Source: a virus
Taxonomy: Duplodnaviria > Heunggongvirae > Uroviricota > Caudoviricetes
Virus record (IMG/VR): IMGVR_UViG_2778261087_000006
Length of the DNA stretch: 10,240 bases
Strand: one strand, 5' to 3'
Under the pieces are notes generated by a model, which was not told where the DNA came from, did no database searches, and worked only from the letters and a program-made list of their open reading frames with translations. Position 1 is the stretch's first letter. Every line of letters begins with the position of its first letter. Both the position numbers and the translations under genes were made by a program. This document shows, one piece after another, positions 700 through 10,240 of the stretch.

Positions 700-1044
700 T
701 CAGAACTCTTCGATGTTCCAGCCACCACCTGCTTTCTTTGGTTTAACCGTTACCCCGATGATTCGGAACGGATACTGATCTGCGGCGACTTTGGTTTTCA
801 CCCTGGCGTCGTCGGTCCAGAAACCTTTCACTTCGTGCAGTTCCATCTCGCCGGTGGCGAGCATCACAGCAAAATCGGGCGTATAGAACGTGTTGTCAGC
901 TAACCGAAGCTTGATACCCTCAAATCGATACCAGACGATTTCTCCTGCACGTTTACGCAGCTCAAGGTGCTGGCAATACGCAGATTCTGTTTTGTTCATC
1001 TGGCCTGTTTTGAGTCGACCAAGAGCCTGTATCTGTTTTCTCAT
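700..1044 (-). CDS. Small PD-(D/E)XK-motif protein (putative nuclease fold; resembles DUF1064-type phage proteins), 114 aa
   Basis: Complete ORF. Contains ...YTPDF...ELHEVKG..., which fits a PD-x(n)-(D/E)-x-K catalytic signature. ATG at 1044 is preceded by GAGG with 6-nt spacing on the minus strand. Family assignment is from memory, not a search. Confidence 0.55.
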   Translation of the reverse strand: MRKQIQALGRLKTGQMNKTESAYCQHLELRKRAGEIVWYRFEGIKLRLADNTFYTPDFAVMLATGEMELHEVKGFWTDDARVKTKVAADQYPFRIIGVTVKPKKAGGGWNIEEF

Positions 1045-1047
1045 GAT

Positions 1048-1062
1048 TTACCTCTGAGGTAA
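1048..1062. promoter_or_regulatory. Palindromic operator-like site TTACC-tctga-GGTAA
   Basis: Perfect 5+5 inverted repeat with 5-bp spacer. Overlaps the RBS/+1 region of the minus-strand gene starting at 1044. One of eight copies, all intergenic. Confidence 0.5.
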
Positions 1063-1090
1063 TTAAAAACCACATAAGACATGAAATCAA
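1062..1090 (-). promoter_or_regulatory. Candidate sigma70 promoter for the 1044->1 minus-strand genes
   Basis: On the minus strand: -35 TTGATT (plus 1085-1090), 17-bp spacer, -10 TTTAAT (plus 1062-1067). Flanked by palindromic sites at 1048-1062 and 1110-1124. Confidence 0.35.
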
Positions 1091-1109
1091 TAGAAACTAG
1101 AACATTTTA

Positions 1110-1124
1110 TTACCCGCAAGGTAA
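1110..1124. promoter_or_regulatory. Palindromic operator-like site TTACC-cgcaa-GGTAA
   Basis: Perfect inverted-repeat arms. Lies upstream of the candidate promoter at 1062-1090 on the minus strand. Confidence 0.5.
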
Positions 1125-1136
1125 TCATGTAGACGT

Positions 1137-1156
1137 AAAAAAATGCGCTATCGCGC
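1137..1156 (-). terminator. Candidate weak intrinsic terminator after the P-like gene (tR2-like position)
   Basis: On the minus strand: GCGC-gata-GCGC hairpin (plus 1145-1156) followed directly by a 7-nt U run (plus A-run 1137-1143), 5 nt after the P-like stop. The stem is only 4 bp, so it is probably partial. Confidence 0.3.
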
Positions 1157-1161
1157 TGGTA

Positions 1162-1962
1162 TTACTTGATAAATCCTGCCGCCTTTCCCCGCCTGTATTC
1201 CTCCATCAGCCACTGCGCCGGTGTTATTCCTCCCAGGGTGGCGGCGTTAGGCATGCACCCGAAACTTCGCCCTGGCGGGTGGTAAACGTCTCTCCCTGTG
1301 TCCGGAGGCGTACTCATGGGTTCTGGCTTTGCCTGTATGCTGATCACCGGATCGGGTATCTGCTGTCCGGAAGCCACCTTTTTCGCCCAATCATCGAGCA
1401 GCCTGCGCGCGTGTTTCTCAACCTCAATCTCGCTAAGCTGGCGCTGATACATTGCACGGCGGGTGTCACATACAACCCAGTACATAACCGGATGCCGCCA
1501 CGGGAATCTTTCGGGACCACCAGGATATAAACTTTTTTCCTTGCTGTACCGGTGAAACTCCGCCATCACATCGTCAATGGTGACGCCAAGAACCATCTTG
1601 CTGTCTTTGCACCACTTGATAAATTGCCCTGGCGACGGCCAGAACGGAGATTCACTGGCGCGGGCGTGGCGCATACCAGCAGAAACCTGTTCACGGGTTC
1701 GGATCCCCCCTTCGGCAAACGCAGCAATCCACTGCTGTTTTGCAGCAACTTCCTGCTCTGGCGTCTTCAGGTTGGTTACCACTGCCGCCGGAAACAGTTG
1801 TTTCAACTGTTTGAAAAGGGCATCAACAAGCCTCTCTGCTGACATGTTCACCACATTGTCATTGTTGACGTACTGATGCTCATAACCTGACATGCGAGAA
1901 AGGGCTTCTCCGTCACGGTTTTGTATCGCGGTAAAAACGTTGTTCACAAGAAATCCTCCCAC
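1162..1962 (-). CDS. P: Replication protein P-like (DnaB helicase loader), lambda P family
   Basis: Clear similarity to remembered lambda P: ...QQWIAAFAEGGIRTREQVSAGMRHARASESPFWPSPGQFIKWCKD... versus lambda ...RQWVLAFRENGITTMEQVNAGMRVARRQNRPFLPSPGQFVAWCRE.... Start is uncertain: GTG at 1962 overlaps the O-like gene end, with in-frame ATGs at 1893 and 1845. Confidence 0.85.
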   Translation of the reverse strand: MGGFLVNNVFTAIQNRDGEALSRMSGYEHQYVNNDNVVNMSAERLVDALFKQLKQLFPAAVVTNLKTPEQEVAAKQQWIAAFAEGGIRTREQVSAGMRHARASESPFWPSPGQFIKWCKDSKMVLGVTIDDVMAEFHRYSKEKSLYPGGPERFPWRHPVMYWVVCDTRRAMYQRQLSEIEVEKHARRLLDDWAKKVASGQQIPDPVISIQAKPEPMSTPPDTGRDVYHPPGRSFGCMPNAATLGGITPAQWLMEEYRRGKAAGFIK

Positions 1963-2759
1963 GCTTCAGGGCTGTTCCAGTGCGGAACGTTGTTATCAGG
2001 TAATGTTGATTGCTTCTGTCTGCTAATCTGCAGCCGCCTTGCCAGCTTCTGCTCCCACTGTGCCTGATGGTATGCCTTACCCTCAGCCATCCAGTAAATT
2101 CTGAACTCTGCAAGTTCCTGTGCCGTTGGCAGACTGTCCAGGTAGATTCCCTGCAATGAGCTTTTCCGAAGAAAGTCATCTGATGGCTGCCATTGTTCAT
2201 GCATGACAAATTTGCCTAATTGCCCTGGCCCACCTGGAGGAACAAAGTTATTCATCACGGCGTTGTTTGCGCCGGGGTCATGGGGCACGGAATCCCCGAT
2301 TTTTGTCCTGCTCTCCCTCTCTTGGTTAAATGACTGGTTATATGACTGGTTCTGGATCCCGTTTTTGGGATCATTCAACATCCCGTTTTTGGGATCATTC
2401 AATATCCCGTTTTTGGGTATATTCCCGTTTTCGGGAACATTACCGTTTTCGGGTTCATTACCCCCTTCCCGGTTGCCTTTAATGTTCCCTTTTTTGGTTA
2501 TATTAAGAGAGAAAACCCGTACTCTTTTCGTCGCCCCCTTTCTCTCTCCGGTATCTGAAATAAGCCCCATTTTCATGAGCGATATAAGCCCGGCCTGCAC
2601 GGTTTTTTTATTCAGGCAAGTGTCTTTAACGAGGCGTTCTATGCTGGGGTAGCAGAGGTTATATTCATCGGCTCTGTCAGCCATCGAGAGCAGTATGAGC
2701 TTTAATGACGAGCTCCCTGGATCTGTCTCCCAGGCCCAATCTGTTGCATGTCTGCTCAT
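1944..2759 (-). CDS. Replication initiator, O-like (N-terminal HTH domain, repeat-rich linker, C-terminal domain)
   Basis: Sits immediately upstream of the P-like gene. ATG at 2759 has GGAG 8-11 nt upstream. Central N/G/P-rich peptide repeats (PENGNVPENGNIPKNG...) are encoded by the iteron array, as in lambda O. N-terminal domain is not lambda-O-like in sequence. Confidence 0.75.
   Translation of the reverse strand: MSRHATDWAWETDPGSSSLKLILLSMADRADEYNLCYPSIERLVKDTCLNKKTVQAGLISLMKMGLISDTGERKGATKRVRVFSLNITKKGNIKGNREGGNEPENGNVPENGNIPKNGILNDPKNGMLNDPKNGIQNQSYNQSFNQERESRTKIGDSVPHDPGANNAVMNNFVPPGGPGQLGKFVMHEQWQPSDDFLRKSSLQGIYLDSLPTAQELAEFRIYWMAEGKAYHQAQWEQKLARRLQISRQKQSTLPDNNVPHWNSPEAWEDFL
2354..2460. 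repeat. Iteron array, putative origin of replication inside the O-like gene
   Basis: Five direct repeats with core CCCGTTTT(T/C)GGG starting at 2358, 2382, 2406, 2424 and 2443 (spacing 24, 24, 18, 19 bp). Preceded by tandem ATGACTGGTT x2 (2330-2352) and followed by a more A/T-rich stretch (about 2480-2520). Confidence 0.6.
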
Positions 2760-2774
2760 GATTAATCTCCGCTA

Positions 2775-2975
2775 TCAGCTTGAATGTTGTGGGGAGGAAT
2801 TAATCATGATCTGCTTAATCTCTGCCCTGATGCGACGGTTTGATTCCATGGTGCACTCAACACAGTGTCCGTTGTAAACCCAGCGTTCACTGTCATGTCC
2901 GTGCTTACATGGTTTTCCGGTGTAGTAGCGTTTAAGTCCGCGCTTTGCGGCATCAATACGTGTAATGATTTCCAT
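2775..2975 (-). CDS. Small zinc-ribbon protein (C-x-H-G-H ... C-x2-C), 66 aa; cII-position gene
   Basis: Lies within track ORF 2775-3038. Internal ATG at 2975 has AGGG 6-9 nt upstream, and the longer N-terminal extension is hydrophobic with no clear RBS. Motif ...GKPCKHGHDSERWVYNGHCVEC.... Function inferred from position only. Confidence 0.5.
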   Translation of the reverse strand: MEIITRIDAAKRGLKRYYTGKPCKHGHDSERWVYNGHCVECTMESNRRIRAEIKQIMINSSPQHSS

Positions 2976-3055
2976 GGTAAGCCCTGTTATTAGTATTGGG
3001 ATTACGGTTATTTTGTGCTGACACAAAAAAAAGATCAACCAGATTTGGTTTTTTA

Positions 3056-3070
3056 TTACCTTTGAGGTGC
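3056..3070. promoter_or_regulatory. Variant operator-like site TTACC-tttga-GGTGC
   Basis: One arm is perfect and the other degenerate (GGTGC). Located between the Cro-like gene and the zinc-ribbon gene, just past the hairpin at 3085-3104. Confidence 0.35.
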
Positions 3071-3084
3071 GAATAGATATGAAA

Positions 3085-3104
3085 AGACCGCCGGATGGCG
3101 GTCT
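3085..3104 (-). terminator. Candidate partial terminator between the Cro-like and zinc-ribbon genes (tR1-like position)
   Basis: Perfect 8-bp stem AGACCGCC / GGCGGTCT with 4-nt loop. On the minus strand it is followed by UUUC-AUAUCUAUUC, which is U-rich but interrupted. Confidence 0.3.
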
Positions 3105-3125
3105 ACAGAGGGTTGTGGCTGGATA

Positions 3126-3356
3126 TCATGAGTAGAAGAAGTATGCCAGTTCTGCTTTTGAGCGCAGCCATTGTCTTGTTTTACAGGCTTTAAAAAGCCC
3201 ATTCATCAATACCTTACCTGGCATTTTGCGCTTACCTGTTAAGTGAGTCTGGATATAGTGACTCGTCGTTCCGGCTTCCTGTGCGAAGGCTTCACGCTCA
3301 TCCGGAGTAAGTGCAAGCCAGTGCTTTTTGAAATCGAAATGTCCGTTATCGCTCAT
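3126..3356 (-). CDS. Cro-like small HTH DNA-binding protein, 76 aa
   Basis: Complete ORF, divergent from the repressor-like gene across an operator-rich intergenic region. First gene of the minus-strand operon. HTH-like segment ...EAFAQEAGTTSHYIQTHLTGKRKMPGK.... Confidence 0.6.
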   Translation of the reverse strand: MSDNGHFDFKKHWLALTPDEREAFAQEAGTTSHYIQTHLTGKRKMPGKVLMNGLFKACKTRQWLRSKAELAYFFYS

Positions 3357-3381
3357 AGCTATTGCCTGATATTTATTTCAG

Positions 3382-3410
3382 ATAATAAATATTCACCCAT
3401 AAGGTAACAA
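3382..3410 (-). promoter_or_regulatory. Candidate pR-like promoter for the Cro-like operon
   Basis: On the minus strand: -35 TTGTTA (plus 3405-3410), 17-bp spacer, -10 TATTAT (plus 3382-3387). The operator-like site at 3393-3407 sits in the spacer. Confidence 0.4.
3393..3407. promoter_or_regulatory. Operator-like site TCACC-cataa-GGTAA (variant)
   Basis: Inverted repeat with one mismatch in the left arm. Overlaps the pR-like promoter spacer. Confidence 0.4.
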
Positions 3411-3423
3411 AAATCAAGGATAG

Positions 3424-3438
3424 TTACCTATGGGGTGC
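3424..3438. promoter_or_regulatory. Operator-like site TTACC-tatgg-GGTGC (variant)
   Basis: Left arm perfect, right arm degenerate. Adjacent to the site at 3441-3455, centre-to-centre 17 bp. Confidence 0.4.
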
Positions 3439-3440
3439 AT

Positions 3441-3455
3441 TTACCTATTGGGTAA
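3441..3455. promoter_or_regulatory. Operator-like site TTACC-tattg-GGTAA
   Basis: Perfect palindrome arms. About 55 bp upstream of the repressor-like gene start, in the position of an autoregulatory (pRM-type) operator. Confidence 0.5.
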
Positions 3456-3510
3456 TATTGCTTTAAATTGAATCATCTACTGATTCATATATGAGGCGAT
3501 TTTCCAGAAA

Positions 3511-4095
3511 ATGAAAAGTATCCAGGACGTCCGCAGGCAAAATCTCAACGACTTGATCGACCGTGAATTCAATGGTGTTCAGACGCGGATGGCAGAAAAA
3601 CTTGGAACTCAGGCAAATCTGGTAAACCGCTGGGCTCTTGGCAAGAAGGTTATCGGCGACCAGGTTGCGCGAAAAATTGAAGCTGCCGCCAATAAACCCC
3701 GTAACTGGCTTGATATCGATCGCTCGCTTTCTCAGGAAGGTTTTCAGCCTGTCGGCCCAAGCGACATTGGTCAGCTGGCGGCTCACAACCTAGAACGCTG
3801 GATGAGCGAAAGCCGCGACCTTTCAACGCAGGGAAAACTTCACCGCGCATCCGGCGTCGCCCAGGTGACAATCAGCCGCCTGTTAAACAATGAGGTCAGT
3901 GTTTCCATTTCCACCCTGGAGAATGTTGCATCCGCATTCGGGCGTCACGGCTATGAATTACTGATTCACCCGCACGACCCTGCGACCATCAACTATGACC
4001 GCTCGCGCTACGCATTGTTACCTGAAACAGAGAAGGCAAAGATCGAAAGTTACATTGAATTTGTCATCAGCCAGAACGAAAAAAACAAACAATAA
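3511..4095 (+). CDS. Putative prophage repressor (CI-position), 194 aa, two predicted HTH domains, no S24 peptidase domain
   Basis: Complete ORF divergent from the Cro-like gene and followed by a strong terminator, then the pL-like promoter. N-terminal Cro/YdaS-like HTH (...GVQTRMAEKLGTQANLVNRW...) and a second XRE-like HTH (...ASGVAQVTISRLLNNEVSVSISTLENVA...). No obvious SD before the ATG, which resembles leaderless or weakly initiated cI genes. Confidence 0.65.
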   Translation: MKSIQDVRRQNLNDLIDREFNGVQTRMAEKLGTQANLVNRWALGKKVIGDQVARKIEAAANKPRNWLDIDRSLSQEGFQPVGPSDIGQLAAHNLERWMSESRDLSTQGKLHRASGVAQVTISRLLNNEVSVSISTLENVASAFGRHGYELLIHPHDPATINYDRSRYALLPETEKAKIESYIEFVISQNEKNKQ

Positions 4096-4116
4096 AATCA
4101 TATTTTTTCAGTAAGT

Positions 4117-4141
4117 AAGCCGCCTCATGGCGGCTTTTTTA
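4117..4141 (+). terminator. Rho-independent terminator downstream of the repressor-like gene
   Basis: 8-bp GC-rich stem AAGCCGCC / GGCGGCTT with loop TCAT, followed by a run of 6-7 T. Lies 22 nt after the stop codon. Confidence 0.7.
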
Positions 4142-4153
4142 TTGCCTGTGCGA

Positions 4154-4168
4154 TTACCTGATGGGTAA
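4154..4168. promoter_or_regulatory. Operator-like site TTACC-tgatg-GGTAA
   Basis: Perfect palindrome arms, 20 bp upstream of the -35 of the pL-like promoter. Confidence 0.5.
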
Positions 4169-4187
4169 TTTTTTTAACTCATATCTA

Positions 4188-4216
4188 TTGACATCAAACC
4201 AGATACGCATAATTAT
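4188..4216 (+). promoter_or_regulatory. pL-like promoter for the plus-strand early operon
   Basis: Consensus -35 TTGACA at 4188-4193. Candidate -10 AATTAT at 4211-4216 with 17-bp spacer (CATAAT at 4208-4213 is an alternative). The operator-like site at 4216-4230 overlaps the -10/+1 region. Confidence 0.5.
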
Positions 4217-4230
4217 TACCTCAACGGTAA
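4216..4230. promoter_or_regulatory. Operator-like site TTACC-tcaac-GGTAA
   Basis: Perfect palindrome arms overlapping the -10/start region of the pL-like promoter. An extra GGTAAC half-site follows at 4239-4244. Confidence 0.5.
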
Positions 4231-4249
4231 CAGACCGAGGTAACAAGTT

Positions 4250-4411
4250 ATGCAGTGGAAAATCATCAACGGTTGGTACTGCGTTACTGCATGCGGATTC
4301 ATGAGCTGGAAGTTCCGCACCTTACAGGAAGGCATTAAGTGGGCTTTCGTCAGCAAAGAAGCTCGCGATGTGGCCAACGATAACGAGATATGGGAGGAGG
4401 TTAGCAAATGA
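4250..4411 (+). CDS. Small ORF, 53 aa, first gene of the pL-like operon (not in the ORF track)
   Basis: ATG at 4250 with GAGG 10 nt upstream. Translated by hand without internal stops: MQWKIINGWYCVTACGFMSWKFRTLQEGIKWAFVSKEARDVANDNEIWEEVSK. Its TGA overlaps the ATG of the next gene (ATGA at 4408-4411). Competes with the opposite-strand track ORF 4216-4407. Confidence 0.4.
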   Translation: MQWKIINGWYCVTACGFMSWKFRTLQEGIKWAFVSKEARDVANDNEIWEEVSK

Positions 4412-6567: not shown

Positions 6568-7445
6568 GCAATGATATCGCAATCACATCACAACCAGGCG
6601 CAACTGTAGGCACTGCTGCGGCAATCTTCAGCCCCGAGGGCATGAATCAACTGGTGCGTTTCGCGGAGTTGATGTCACAAAGCAAAGCGACTGTACCGAA
6701 ACATCTTGAAGGCAAACCTGCCGATTGCCTGGCGGTGACCATGCAGGCGGCACAGTGGGGAATGAACCCGTTCGCCGTGGCGCAGAAAACGCATGTGGTA
6801 AACGGAACGTTAGGCTACGAAGCACAGTTGGTAAACGCGGTCGTATCCTCTTCCAGCCTGCTGGCGACACGCCTGAATTATCGCTGGAGCGGTGACTGGT
6901 CGAATGTTAACGGCAAAACAGATAAATCACCTAATCTGACGGTAACTGTGTCAGCAGTTCTTAAAGGAGAAGCAGAACCACGTGAGCTTACCATCAGTAT
7001 GGCGCAAGCCGGAGTGCGTAACTCTCCATTGTGGGAACAGGATCCGCGCCAGCAGCTTGCCTATCTTTGCACGAAACGATGGGCTCGCCTGCACGCTCCT
7101 GATGTACTTCTCGGTGTTTACACACCAGACGAATTACAGGAAACGGCACCGCGCGTTGAGCGAGACATTACTCCGCAAACGACCACTGCTGCGGGAATGA
7201 ACAGTCTGATCAACGCTAAAACAGTGAAAAAGCCTGATGAGCAAACGCGTAAAGCGGATAGCCGTGATCCAGAAGAAATGCTGATGGCCTTTACCAGCGC
7301 AGCGATGAATTACAGCACTGTCTCCGAACTAGATAAGGCTTACAAATACATTGCACAAAAACTTTCAGATGATGACGAACTACTGGCAAAAGCCACCGAC
7401 GTTTACAGCGTTCGCCGGGAAGAATTAAACGAAACATCTATGTAA
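6564..7445 (+). CDS. RecT/Redbeta-superfamily single-strand annealing protein, 293 aa
   Basis: Paired with the upstream exonuclease. Local resemblance to remembered lambda Bet (...QWGMNPFAVAQKTHVV... versus ...QYGLNPWTKEIYAF...). Exact subfamily not resolved. Confidence 0.75.
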   Translation: MSNDIAITSQPGATVGTAAAIFSPEGMNQLVRFAELMSQSKATVPKHLEGKPADCLAVTMQAAQWGMNPFAVAQKTHVVNGTLGYEAQLVNAVVSSSSLLATRLNYRWSGDWSNVNGKTDKSPNLTVTVSAVLKGEAEPRELTISMAQAGVRNSPLWEQDPRQQLAYLCTKRWARLHAPDVLLGVYTPDELQETAPRVERDITPQTTTAAGMNSLINAKTVKKPDEQTRKADSRDPEEMLMAFTSAAMNYSTVSELDKAYKYIAQKLSDDDELLAKATDVYSVRREELNETSM

Positions 7446-8989: not shown

Positions 8990-10240
8990 TTATTCCCCCG
9001 CCATCCACTTCTCAAACTTCGACGGGGAGAACGGAATCAGATCCGTATGCTCCCCGTTAATCCAGGAATCAATCATATCGGCCCACTGCTGCAACATGTA
9101 GGCGCGCTGTCTGGCGTATTCCGCTTTGTTATATACGGCGCGCACACCTTTCTGCTCATGTGCCAGAGCCTTTTCAATCCAGTCTGAAGGATAACCAGCC
9201 TCATGCAACAACGTACTGGCTGTACGGCGCATATCGTGTACGGTGAAATCCTGAATATGCTCACCATCTTCATTTATTATTTTCACCGTTCTGTCGATCA
9301 GAGAGTTCAGCGCGGCATTAGATAATGGCTTCCGGAAATTGTAACGACCAGGAACCAGATATTCATTTCCACCAGCGCACATCTGCAACCCGACCAATAT
9401 ATCCTGAGCCTGTTTAGGCAGGTAAATAACATGCGCCCGGCTTCCCTTCATGCGGTCTGAAGGAATTGTCCATGTCCATTTTTTAAAATCTATTTCATCC
9501 CACGTTGCATTGGTGAATTCGCCCTTACGAACCATAGTGATAAGCACCAGTTTTAAAGCCATTTTCATAGTGCCCATAGCACCAATGGCATCCAACGTGC
9601 GGAAGAACAGGCCAATTTCTTCTGGTGTCAGTGTTCGCTCTCGTGGTTTAAATATGGCGATAGACGAAGGCTTAATGTCAGCCGCAGGATTAAACAAACC
9701 ATGACCACGGTCATTGGCGTGACGGTATACGCTGCTGATGATCTCCCTGGCCTGCACTGCTGTTGCCCGGCCACCGCGTTCGACAATCCGGTCACACAAA
9801 TCACGAACCATCGATGTGGTAATTTCAGCCATCATTTTGTTGCCAAGAACCGGAAGTATGTCACGGTCGATCACTGCCTGCTTCATTGCGCGGGTACTTT
9901 CAGCCAGGATGACGTGTTTCATATAACTGTCGGTATGTACCGCAAACGTTTCGGCACCACGAATCTTTTTGATGCCGTCACGTTTAGCAGCAGCCGGTGA
10001 CTGGCCTGCTTTAAGCAGCTTCTTTGCAGCAATCAGTTCTTCTCGCGCTTCTGCCAGGCTGATACCGTCACGCCCATACTGCCCGATTACCAGTGTTTCG
10101 CGGCGACCGTTGATACGGTAGTCATAGCGAAACGAGACCGTACCTGACGTAAGCACAGCTACATACAGCCCGTCACGATCGGAGACCTTGTACAGTTTGT
10201 CCTGCGGCTTGAGGTTTTTTAATTTTGTATCGGTAAGCAC
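8990..10240 (-). CDS. int: Tyrosine recombinase / phage integrase (P4-type, N-terminal arm-binding domain), 416 aa
   Basis: N-terminus MLTDTKLKNLKPQDKLYKVSDRDGLYVAV... aligns with remembered P4-family integrase N-termini, and the catalytic-domain Y/R/H signature lies toward the C-terminus (...HDMRRTASTLLHEAGY...). First codon is GTG exactly at the window edge (10240-10238), so the upstream RBS and att site are not visible. Confidence 0.9.
   Translation of the reverse strand: MLTDTKLKNLKPQDKLYKVSDRDGLYVAVLTSGTVSFRYDYRINGRRETLVIGQYGRDGISLAEAREELIAAKKLLKAGQSPAAAKRDGIKKIRGAETFAVHTDSYMKHVILAESTRAMKQAVIDRDILPVLGNKMMAEITTSMVRDLCDRIVERGGRATAVQAREIISSVYRHANDRGHGLFNPAADIKPSSIAIFKPRERTLTPEEIGLFFRTLDAIGAMGTMKMALKLVLITMVRKGEFTNATWDEIDFKKWTWTIPSDRMKGSRAHVIYLPKQAQDILVGLQMCAGGNEYLVPGRYNFRKPLSNAALNSLIDRTVKIINEDGEHIQDFTVHDMRRTASTLLHEAGYPSDWIEKALAHEQKGVRAVYNKAEYARQRAYMLQQWADMIDSWINGEHTDLIPFSPSKFEKWMAGE

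Follow-up and report, generated by a model that had tools for sequence, protein, structure and literature searches.

TTACC-N5-GGTAA palindromes at the early promoters of a phiV10-like prophage as very probable operators of the immunity repressor Rep

Results

The DNA analysed here is a stretch of 10,240 nucleotides (the window; IMG/VR record IMGVR_UViG_2778261087_000006, Caudoviricetes), and our analysis concerns eight palindromes of the form TTACC-N5-GGTAA located between positions 1048 and 4230, which are very probably the operators of the prophage immunity repressor Rep, a protein of 194 amino acids (aa) encoded at 3511-4095 on the plus strand. The window shares 97-98% identity with Escherichia phage phiV10 and its relatives and is, by homology, the early/immunity region of a phiV10-like prophage (genus Uetakevirus, epsilon15 group). 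This immunity region was found at 95-99% identity in 561 of 5,426 complete E. coli genomes (∼10%). Gene assignments were made by homology and Pfam. On the plus strand, rep is followed by a terminator and then by the leftward early operon, which carries small open reading frames (ORFs), a PD-(D/E)XK exonuclease, RecT, AlpA-like and PerC-like proteins, an MT-A70 methylase, and DUF1382, with the integrase gene at the right end of the window. The minus strand carries the rightward early operon, which begins with a cro-like gene (3126-3356, 76 aa), followed by a terminator (3085-3104), a 66-aa protein, the replication genes (a DnaT/O-like protein with internal iterons at 2323-2462, then a lambda P-like protein), another terminator, a DUF1064 gene (700-1044, minus strand, start at 1044), and an Ead-like gene.

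A preliminary description of this DNA had listed eight intergenic palindromes, five of them perfect and three with one degenerate arm, and on reading the sequence from 900 to 4400 we recovered every one of them. The arms TTACC and GGTAA are exact at 1048, 1110, 3441, 4154, and 4216, where they enclose the spacers TCTGA, CGCAA, TATTG, TGATG, and TCAAC, respectively. The degenerate sites are at 3393 (TCACC CATAA GGTAA, one mismatch), 3056 (TTACC TTTGA GGTGC), and 3424 (TTACC TATGG GGTGC), the latter two with two mismatches each. According to the ORF list and the phiV10 annotation, all eight lie between genes, and the five perfect copies in the window are all intergenic, in agreement with the earlier statement that coding DNA holds no full copy. 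Only 0.01 perfect copies would be expected in the window by chance, and none of 200 shuffled sequences attained five. When up to two mismatches were allowed, 12 matches were found against 2.9 expected; the four additional ones (3232, 4715, 5327, and 5784) are all in coding DNA and equal the chance expectation. Over 50 distinct perfect sites, the flanking bases are A/T and extend the palindrome to 17 base pairs (bp; ATTACC-N5-GGTAAT), and the central base of the spacer is A or T in 92%.

We then compared the window with six relatives, namely phiV10, epsilon15, SPC32H, the Enterobacter phages Tyrion and BUCT554, and the Klebsiella phage BUCT711, making seven genomes from four host genera. The search of related genomes that had been proposed at the outset showed that all six relatives carry this motif, in four intergenic regions that correspond to those of the window. 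Across the alignments of these regions, the arms stay invariant while the spacers vary, in surrounding DNA of 51-78% identity. Relative to phiV10, the window differs at one of 80 arm positions and at seven of 40 spacer positions (e.g., 1115-1119 and 4159-4163), so the 5-bp spacers are hypervariable; differences amount to 3.7% for intergenic DNA elsewhere and to 2.6% for coding DNA. A genome-wide scan, likewise proposed earlier, was run in phiV10, and the good copies were concentrated in the non-coding 6.5% of this genome, not in the 93.5% that is coding: with at most one mismatch, 12 of 14 matches are intergenic as annotated and the other two fall within the first 80 bases of the annotated terS, whereas 21 of the 22 two-mismatch matches are in coding DNA, as expected by chance.

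Conceivably, such motifs could be chance matches in A/T-rich intergenic DNA or by-products of sequences that serve promoters and ribosome binding (e.g., GAGGTAA and TAAT). GA followed by GGTAA does make a Shine-Dalgarno sequence (1053-1062 and 4237-4243), and ATTA resembles the ends of -10 elements. Nevertheless, the excess of perfect copies in the window, the invariance of the arms across genera, and an intergenic restriction in phiV10 far beyond chance leave this explanation hardly credible, and it was discarded on the shuffles and the comparative data. The degenerate sites at 3393, 3424, and 3056 are, judged from the alignments, not chance matches either, because the second of them is perfect in some relatives, the first shows the same one-arm pattern throughout, and one arm of the third is invariant in the relatives (see below).

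The DNA between rep and the divergent cro-like gene (3356-3511), which we call OR, holds three of the palindromes. OR1 (3393-3407) is placed within the spacer and touches the -10 of a pR-like candidate promoter (3389-3417, minus strand; -35 TTGATT at 3417-3412, -10 GAATAT at 3394-3389) that would drive the cro-like gene. For this promoter, AAAAATCAA is invariant in the OR alignment; the promoter scan gave an alternative call, TTGTTA-17-TATTAT at 3410-3382. In each relative examined, exactly one of the two OR1 arms is imperfect. OR2 (3424-3438) is 31 bp, or three helical turns, from OR1 and 17 bp from OR3; it is degenerate in the window, Tyrion, and BUCT554 (the phiV10 subgroup) and perfect in epsilon15, SPC32H, and BUCT711 (the epsilon15 subgroup). 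OR3 (tTTACC TATTG GGTAAt, 3441-3455) overlaps the candidate -35 (TTTACC) and the spacer of what we infer to be a weak rep promoter, the conserved TTTACC-17-TTAAAT, because the TTTACC and TT.AATT columns are invariant in the OR alignment. Other palindromes in OR, at 3369-3392 and 3469-3487, were dropped as they are kept solely in the closest relatives.

Four of the perfect palindromes are arranged as two pairs, each at a candidate promoter. The pL-like candidate (4188-4216, plus strand; TTGACA at 4188-4193 and AATTAT at 4211-4216, 17 bp apart) scored 10/12 in the consensus scan and would drive the leftward early operon. Its predicted start at ∼4223 coincides with the center of the proximal operator OL (aTTACC TCAAC GGTAAc, 4216-4230), which takes in the predicted +1 and the final base of the -10, and the distal operator (aTTACC TGATG GGTAAt, 4154-4168) is centered at about -62 from this start. 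CTATTGAC and ATTATTACC are invariant across the alignment of the pL region in the six phages. The second pair, O3, belongs to a candidate promoter, P3 (1062-1090, minus strand; TTGATT at 1090-1085, 17-bp spacer, TTTAAT at 1067-1062), for the DUF1064/Ead-like block. P3 was read from the sequence and scores under the threshold of 9/12 used in the promoter scan; the alignment of this intergenic region shows conservation of TATTGA and of the -10 region. Its predicted start at ∼1055 is the center of the proximal O3 site (1048-1062, on the minus strand TTACC TCAGA GGTAA), which overlaps the end of the -10 and the +1 and includes the Shine-Dalgarno AGAGG of the DUF1064 gene. The distal O3 site (aTTACC CGCAA GGTAAt, 1110-1124) lies 3' of the replication-gene terminator, with its center again at about -62 from the predicted start.

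The geometry of the two pairs is strikingly uniform. The O3 sites are 62 bp apart, center to center, in all seven genomes, and the OL sites in six of seven, with 63 bp in BUCT711. At both promoters, 19 nucleotides (nt) separate the end of the distal site from the -35, and the UP-element position within this gap is taken by an invariant A/T tract (TTTT or AAAAT). The preliminary description had placed the palindromes over the -35, -10, and +1 of the pR-like, pL-like, and a third candidate promoter; we find the sites on conserved promoter hexamers or next to them, and the distal sites at 1110 and 4154 stop short of the -35. The remaining site, O4 (3056-3070, on the minus strand GCACC TCAAA GGTAAt), is half-degenerate and lies 3' of the cro-like terminator. 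Its GGTAAT arm is invariant in all six phages, and the other arm retains only the inner ACC (CC in BUCT554). The site may be a distal-type operator of an internal promoter 3' of the cro-like terminator, as suggested by an invariant TTGATC 17 nt downstream.

Inverted repeats in such positions could instead work as RNA or DNA structure, that is, as small hairpins, attenuators, or processing sites. Each 17-mer can fold into a hairpin of 5-7 bp, and the site at 1048 is in a 5' leader and includes a ribosome-binding site. The predicted stability is only -1.1 to -4.5 kcal/mol, though, and not a single compensatory change of the arms was found among the 50 distinct perfect sites, which is indicative of a conserved sequence and not just of conserved pairing. 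Moreover, the degenerate sites disrupt the pairing without compensation, and the distal sites are upstream of the promoters and hence not transcribed from them. With hairpins so weak and no covariation, we rejected this explanation as very unlikely.

The gene next to these palindromes encodes a full-length homologue of the Rep protein of phage SPC32H (PDB 5D50, E 4e-42, residues 1-190). HTH_3 (helix-turn-helix, HTH) is the sole Pfam domain in the window Rep, and no Peptidase_S24 domain was found in the Pfam search. By comparison with the homologue, its layout is an N-terminal HTH, a middle HTH_3-type dimerization domain, and a C-terminal domain for tetramerization and binding of the antirepressor Ant. 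The protein is 99.5% identical to phiV10 p40 and to ORF21 of phage ZX5, which was identified by overexpression as the repressor that determines lysogeny (PMC9782041). In papers that cite the SPC32H work, the SPC32H Rep is described as a tetramer that binds palindromic DNA, with the DNA-binding pairs forming across dimers, and that is disassembled by the tetrameric antirepressor Ant (PMC9638917). The domain order is given as N-terminal DNA-binding, middle dimerization, and C-terminal p53-like tetramerization, the last being linked to DNA looping, with the two middle-domain pairs ∼100 Å apart (PMC9986798). A citing paper, from 2023, says that one tetramer is enough for repression but also calls the repression mechanism little characterized (PMC9986798).

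The phiV10-type and SPC32H-type Rep proteins are 54% identical in the N-terminal domain, where the NLVNRW helix is invariant, and 38% in the C-terminal part. The better conservation of the N-terminal domain fits a half-site that is unchanged between the two types. The preliminary description had regarded the palindromes as an operator set for a dimeric HTH repressor. The operator set is upheld by the Rep homology, the epsilon15 annotation discussed below, the invariant arms, and the promoter hexamers; "dimeric" is not, as the Rep homologue is a tetramer, a dimer of dimers with its N-terminal domains paired across dimers. As to the antirepressor, the ant locus is outside the window; the phiV10 Ant (20543-20800) is 88% identical to that of SPC32H (19676-19936), and a CTGT-N8-ACAG box lies upstream of phiV10 ant. 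We also observed a mismatch in divergence, with Ant 88% identical between the two phages and Rep only 42% overall and 38% in the C-terminal half reportedly bound by Ant.

The palindromes could, on the other hand, be chiefly the sites of the cro-like protein or of another phage regulator, or be shared by such a protein with Rep. The cro-like protein gave a match to phrog_35, a family of phage "transcriptional repressor" proteins (E 5.6e-13; it had no match in the Pfam search), its gene adjoins OR as the first of the rightward operon, and sequence by itself does not tell which protein binds. Against this, the epsilon15 record credits the sites to the repressor, SPC32H Rep is reported to bind palindromic sites (PMC9638917), and the half-site and the Rep N-terminal domain are conserved in parallel. 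The cro-like protein is less supported as the binder than Rep, and we consider it improbable that it, or a regulator other than Rep, is what these sites are chiefly for. Shared use by Rep and the cro-like protein, as known for lambda CI and Cro, would be compatible with the assignment to Rep.

Good sites are not confined to the early region. In phiV10, they are also present, in intergenic DNA, upstream of the terS, head, tail-fibre/ant, lysis, and int genes, and Rep therefore probably controls most of the transcription units of the phage. The two phiV10 matches within annotated terS deserve a separate remark. This gene is annotated from a TTG at 41, by which a terminator-like hairpin and the operators at 87 and 105 become intragenic; the start is probably mis-called, because a start at the ATG codons at 119 or 122 would give the gene length seen in epsilon15 and Tyrion. 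We also looked for the motif in the Pseudomonas phage PseuP_224, whose cI is a more distant relative of the Rep N-terminal domain (39% identical over 65 aa); only chance-level matches with two mismatches were found there, and the motif does not extend to this phage.

Besides the Rep operator, we noticed a second, distinct palindrome-like motif, AACC-ATATAT-GGTT (variants of CATATGTGGTT), which occurs in the window at 1068-1078 (minus strand), 3037-3050, and 4197-4207 (minus strand), and in phiV10 at 3308, 20921, 24739, 33135, and 35116. With at most one mismatch, six of its seven matches in phiV10 are intergenic against an estimated ∼0.04 expected. The copies are 23-56 bp from a Rep operator and in or beside the core promoter: they sit in the spacers of P3 and the pL-like promoter, overlap the -35 position at the head, tail, and lysis promoters, and, in the case of the copy at 3037, lie just 5' of TTGATC; in this copy, CC..AT..GGTT is invariant in the six phages. 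This motif is unannotated in the epsilon15 record; it may bind another regulator (the cro-like, PerC-like, or AlpA-like protein) or be a promoter element specific to the phage. Elsewhere in the window, the iterons at 2323-2462 within the DnaT/O-like gene comprise a 24-bp unit, ATCCCGTTTTTGGGATCATTCAAC, in 2.6 copies, an 18-bp unit in 3.1 copies, and a 12-bp unit in 2.4 copies, and are presumably the replication origin, by analogy with lambda O.

Discussion

The closest known system is that of epsilon15, whose GenBank record (AY150271.2) marks ATTACC-N5-GGTAAT sites as protein_bind features with the label "repressor / lysogeny". The motif is identical to that of the window, and the features read ATTACCATTTTGGTAAT, ATTACCTTTTGGGTAAT, ATTACCATTTTGGTAAT, and ATTACCAAAAGGGTAAT. 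Three of them are syntenic with sites of the window (32616-32632 with 4154, 32554-32570 with 4216, and 35906-35922 with 1110). The two phages share the gene order, the 62-bp pair 3' of rep ahead of the leftward operon, and a site that follows the replication genes; epsilon15 differs in that its Rep is only 42% identical to the window Rep and that a third OL site, located another 76 bp along, is present there but missing from the window. We found four unannotated epsilon15 sites with at most one mismatch, three at 7342-7403 between rep and gp39 and one at 9970-9984 (in the numbering of the compared sequence), the last being the counterpart of the proximal O3 site, just upstream of a RuvC-like gene. 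With SPC32H (PDB 5D50 and 5D4Z), the window shares a full-length Rep homologue and the same operator motif at syntenic positions, and the SPC32H Rep is a non-cleavable repressor; it is 42% identical to the window Rep overall, the C-terminal half being more diverged, and ant lies outside the window. On the motif, the Rep homologue, and the syntenic sites, we assign the system in the window to the epsilon15/SPC32H Rep-operator type.

Comparison with lambdoid phages shows a switch that works like the lambda type without being a member of that family. As in lambda, P22, and 434, partly symmetric operators of ∼17 bp overlap the pR-like and pL-like promoters; as in lambda, there are three OR sites (3393, 3424, and 3441) between divergent repressor and cro-like genes, and co-operative binding by an oligomeric repressor is likely. 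In contrast to lambda, the window Rep is without an S24 autocleavage domain, the operator sequence is different, the pL-like promoter is flanked by two sites 62 bp apart instead of three adjacent operators, a third early promoter has operators of its own, and further operators are found upstream of terS and the head, tail, and lysis genes in phiV10, epsilon15, and SPC32H. The stoperators of mycobacteriophage L5 differ as well, being asymmetric, often in transcribed regions, and active in a single orientation, whereas the sites in the window are symmetric, intergenic, and close to promoters. The preliminary description was right that the motif is unlike the lambda, 434, and P22 operators; its novelty did not hold up, as it is the operator of the epsilon15 group. 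Since the motif and its attribution to a repressor stand in the public epsilon15 record, and the window is nearly identical to phiV10, the operator is therefore already known. The epsilon15 genome paper is also said to give an operator consensus of this form. A full-text literature search returned no relevant description of the motif as an operator or of Uetakevirus operators.

From these observations, and from the literature on the SPC32H homologue, a mechanism of repression can be proposed. Pairs of Rep N-terminal HTH domains would read the two TTACC half-sites with a preference for flanking A/T, and the 5-bp spacer, with A/T at its center, would not be read base-specifically. Rep bound at OR1, inside the core of the rightward promoter, would block the pR-like promoter; OR2 and OR3 are 31 and 48 bp beyond OR1, and occupation of OR3, on the likely weak rep promoter, could provide autoregulation. 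At the pL-like promoter and P3, the proximal operator, centered near +1, would block RNA polymerase. The distal operator at about -62, on the same face of the DNA and beside the A/T tract on which the polymerase alpha subunit could dock, may keep that subunit off the UP-like tract. One Rep tetramer, having two DNA-binding units, may hold both sites of a pair co-operatively. Induction, going by homology, would not proceed by RecA-mediated cleavage; instead, a small LexA-controlled Ant encoded elsewhere in the phage would dismantle the tetramer.

The +1/-62 arrangement raises the question of whether the spacing is itself functional, a single Rep tetramer clamping both sites and wrapping the core promoter in a very small loop. 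The distance of 62 bp is about six helical turns, and the pairing recurs at two non-homologous promoters. We hold such a clamp to be possible, though rather doubtful.

Several points weigh against the assignment of the palindromes to Rep or against parts of the proposed mechanism. The ZX5 study contains neither an electrophoretic mobility shift assay nor operator mapping (PMC9782041), and the literature examined has no binding data for the window Rep or for any phiV10-type Rep. The "repressor" features of the epsilon15 record may be predictions themselves, and the cro-like protein could bind the same sites. The promoter scan gave promoter-like sites that were no commoner than in shuffled sequence; the promoter assignments are consensus matches resting on the conservation of the hexamers in the alignments, and we infer from them which site acts on which promoter. 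Bridging of sites 62 bp apart, lastly, requires a sharp bend of the DNA. Even with these points in view, Rep is in our judgment very probably the protein for which the palindromes are operators.

Some elements of the present analysis may be new: the strictness of the +1/-62 pairing, the OR triplet, so far unannotated, the half-site kept at 3056, an operator specificity that has not changed between Rep proteins only 42% identical, and the second palindrome associated with promoters. The operator set of a widespread prophage was picked out correctly from raw sequence, and no new kind of system is implied. The operator annotation can be transferred to phiV10-type prophages, the phiV10 GenBank record having none, and the +1/-62 pairs and the three-site OR offer a testable geometry for a little-characterized repressor. 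As a corollary of the clamp reading, and no less doubtful, the genus would be tied to a single operator specificity: each genome that was scanned in full has a dozen or more operators, and the half-site is unchanged although the Rep proteins are just 42% identical. Phages of E. coli, Salmonella, Klebsiella, and Enterobacter would then be predicted to be cross-immune, in contrast to the lambdoid phages with their fast-diversifying immunities.

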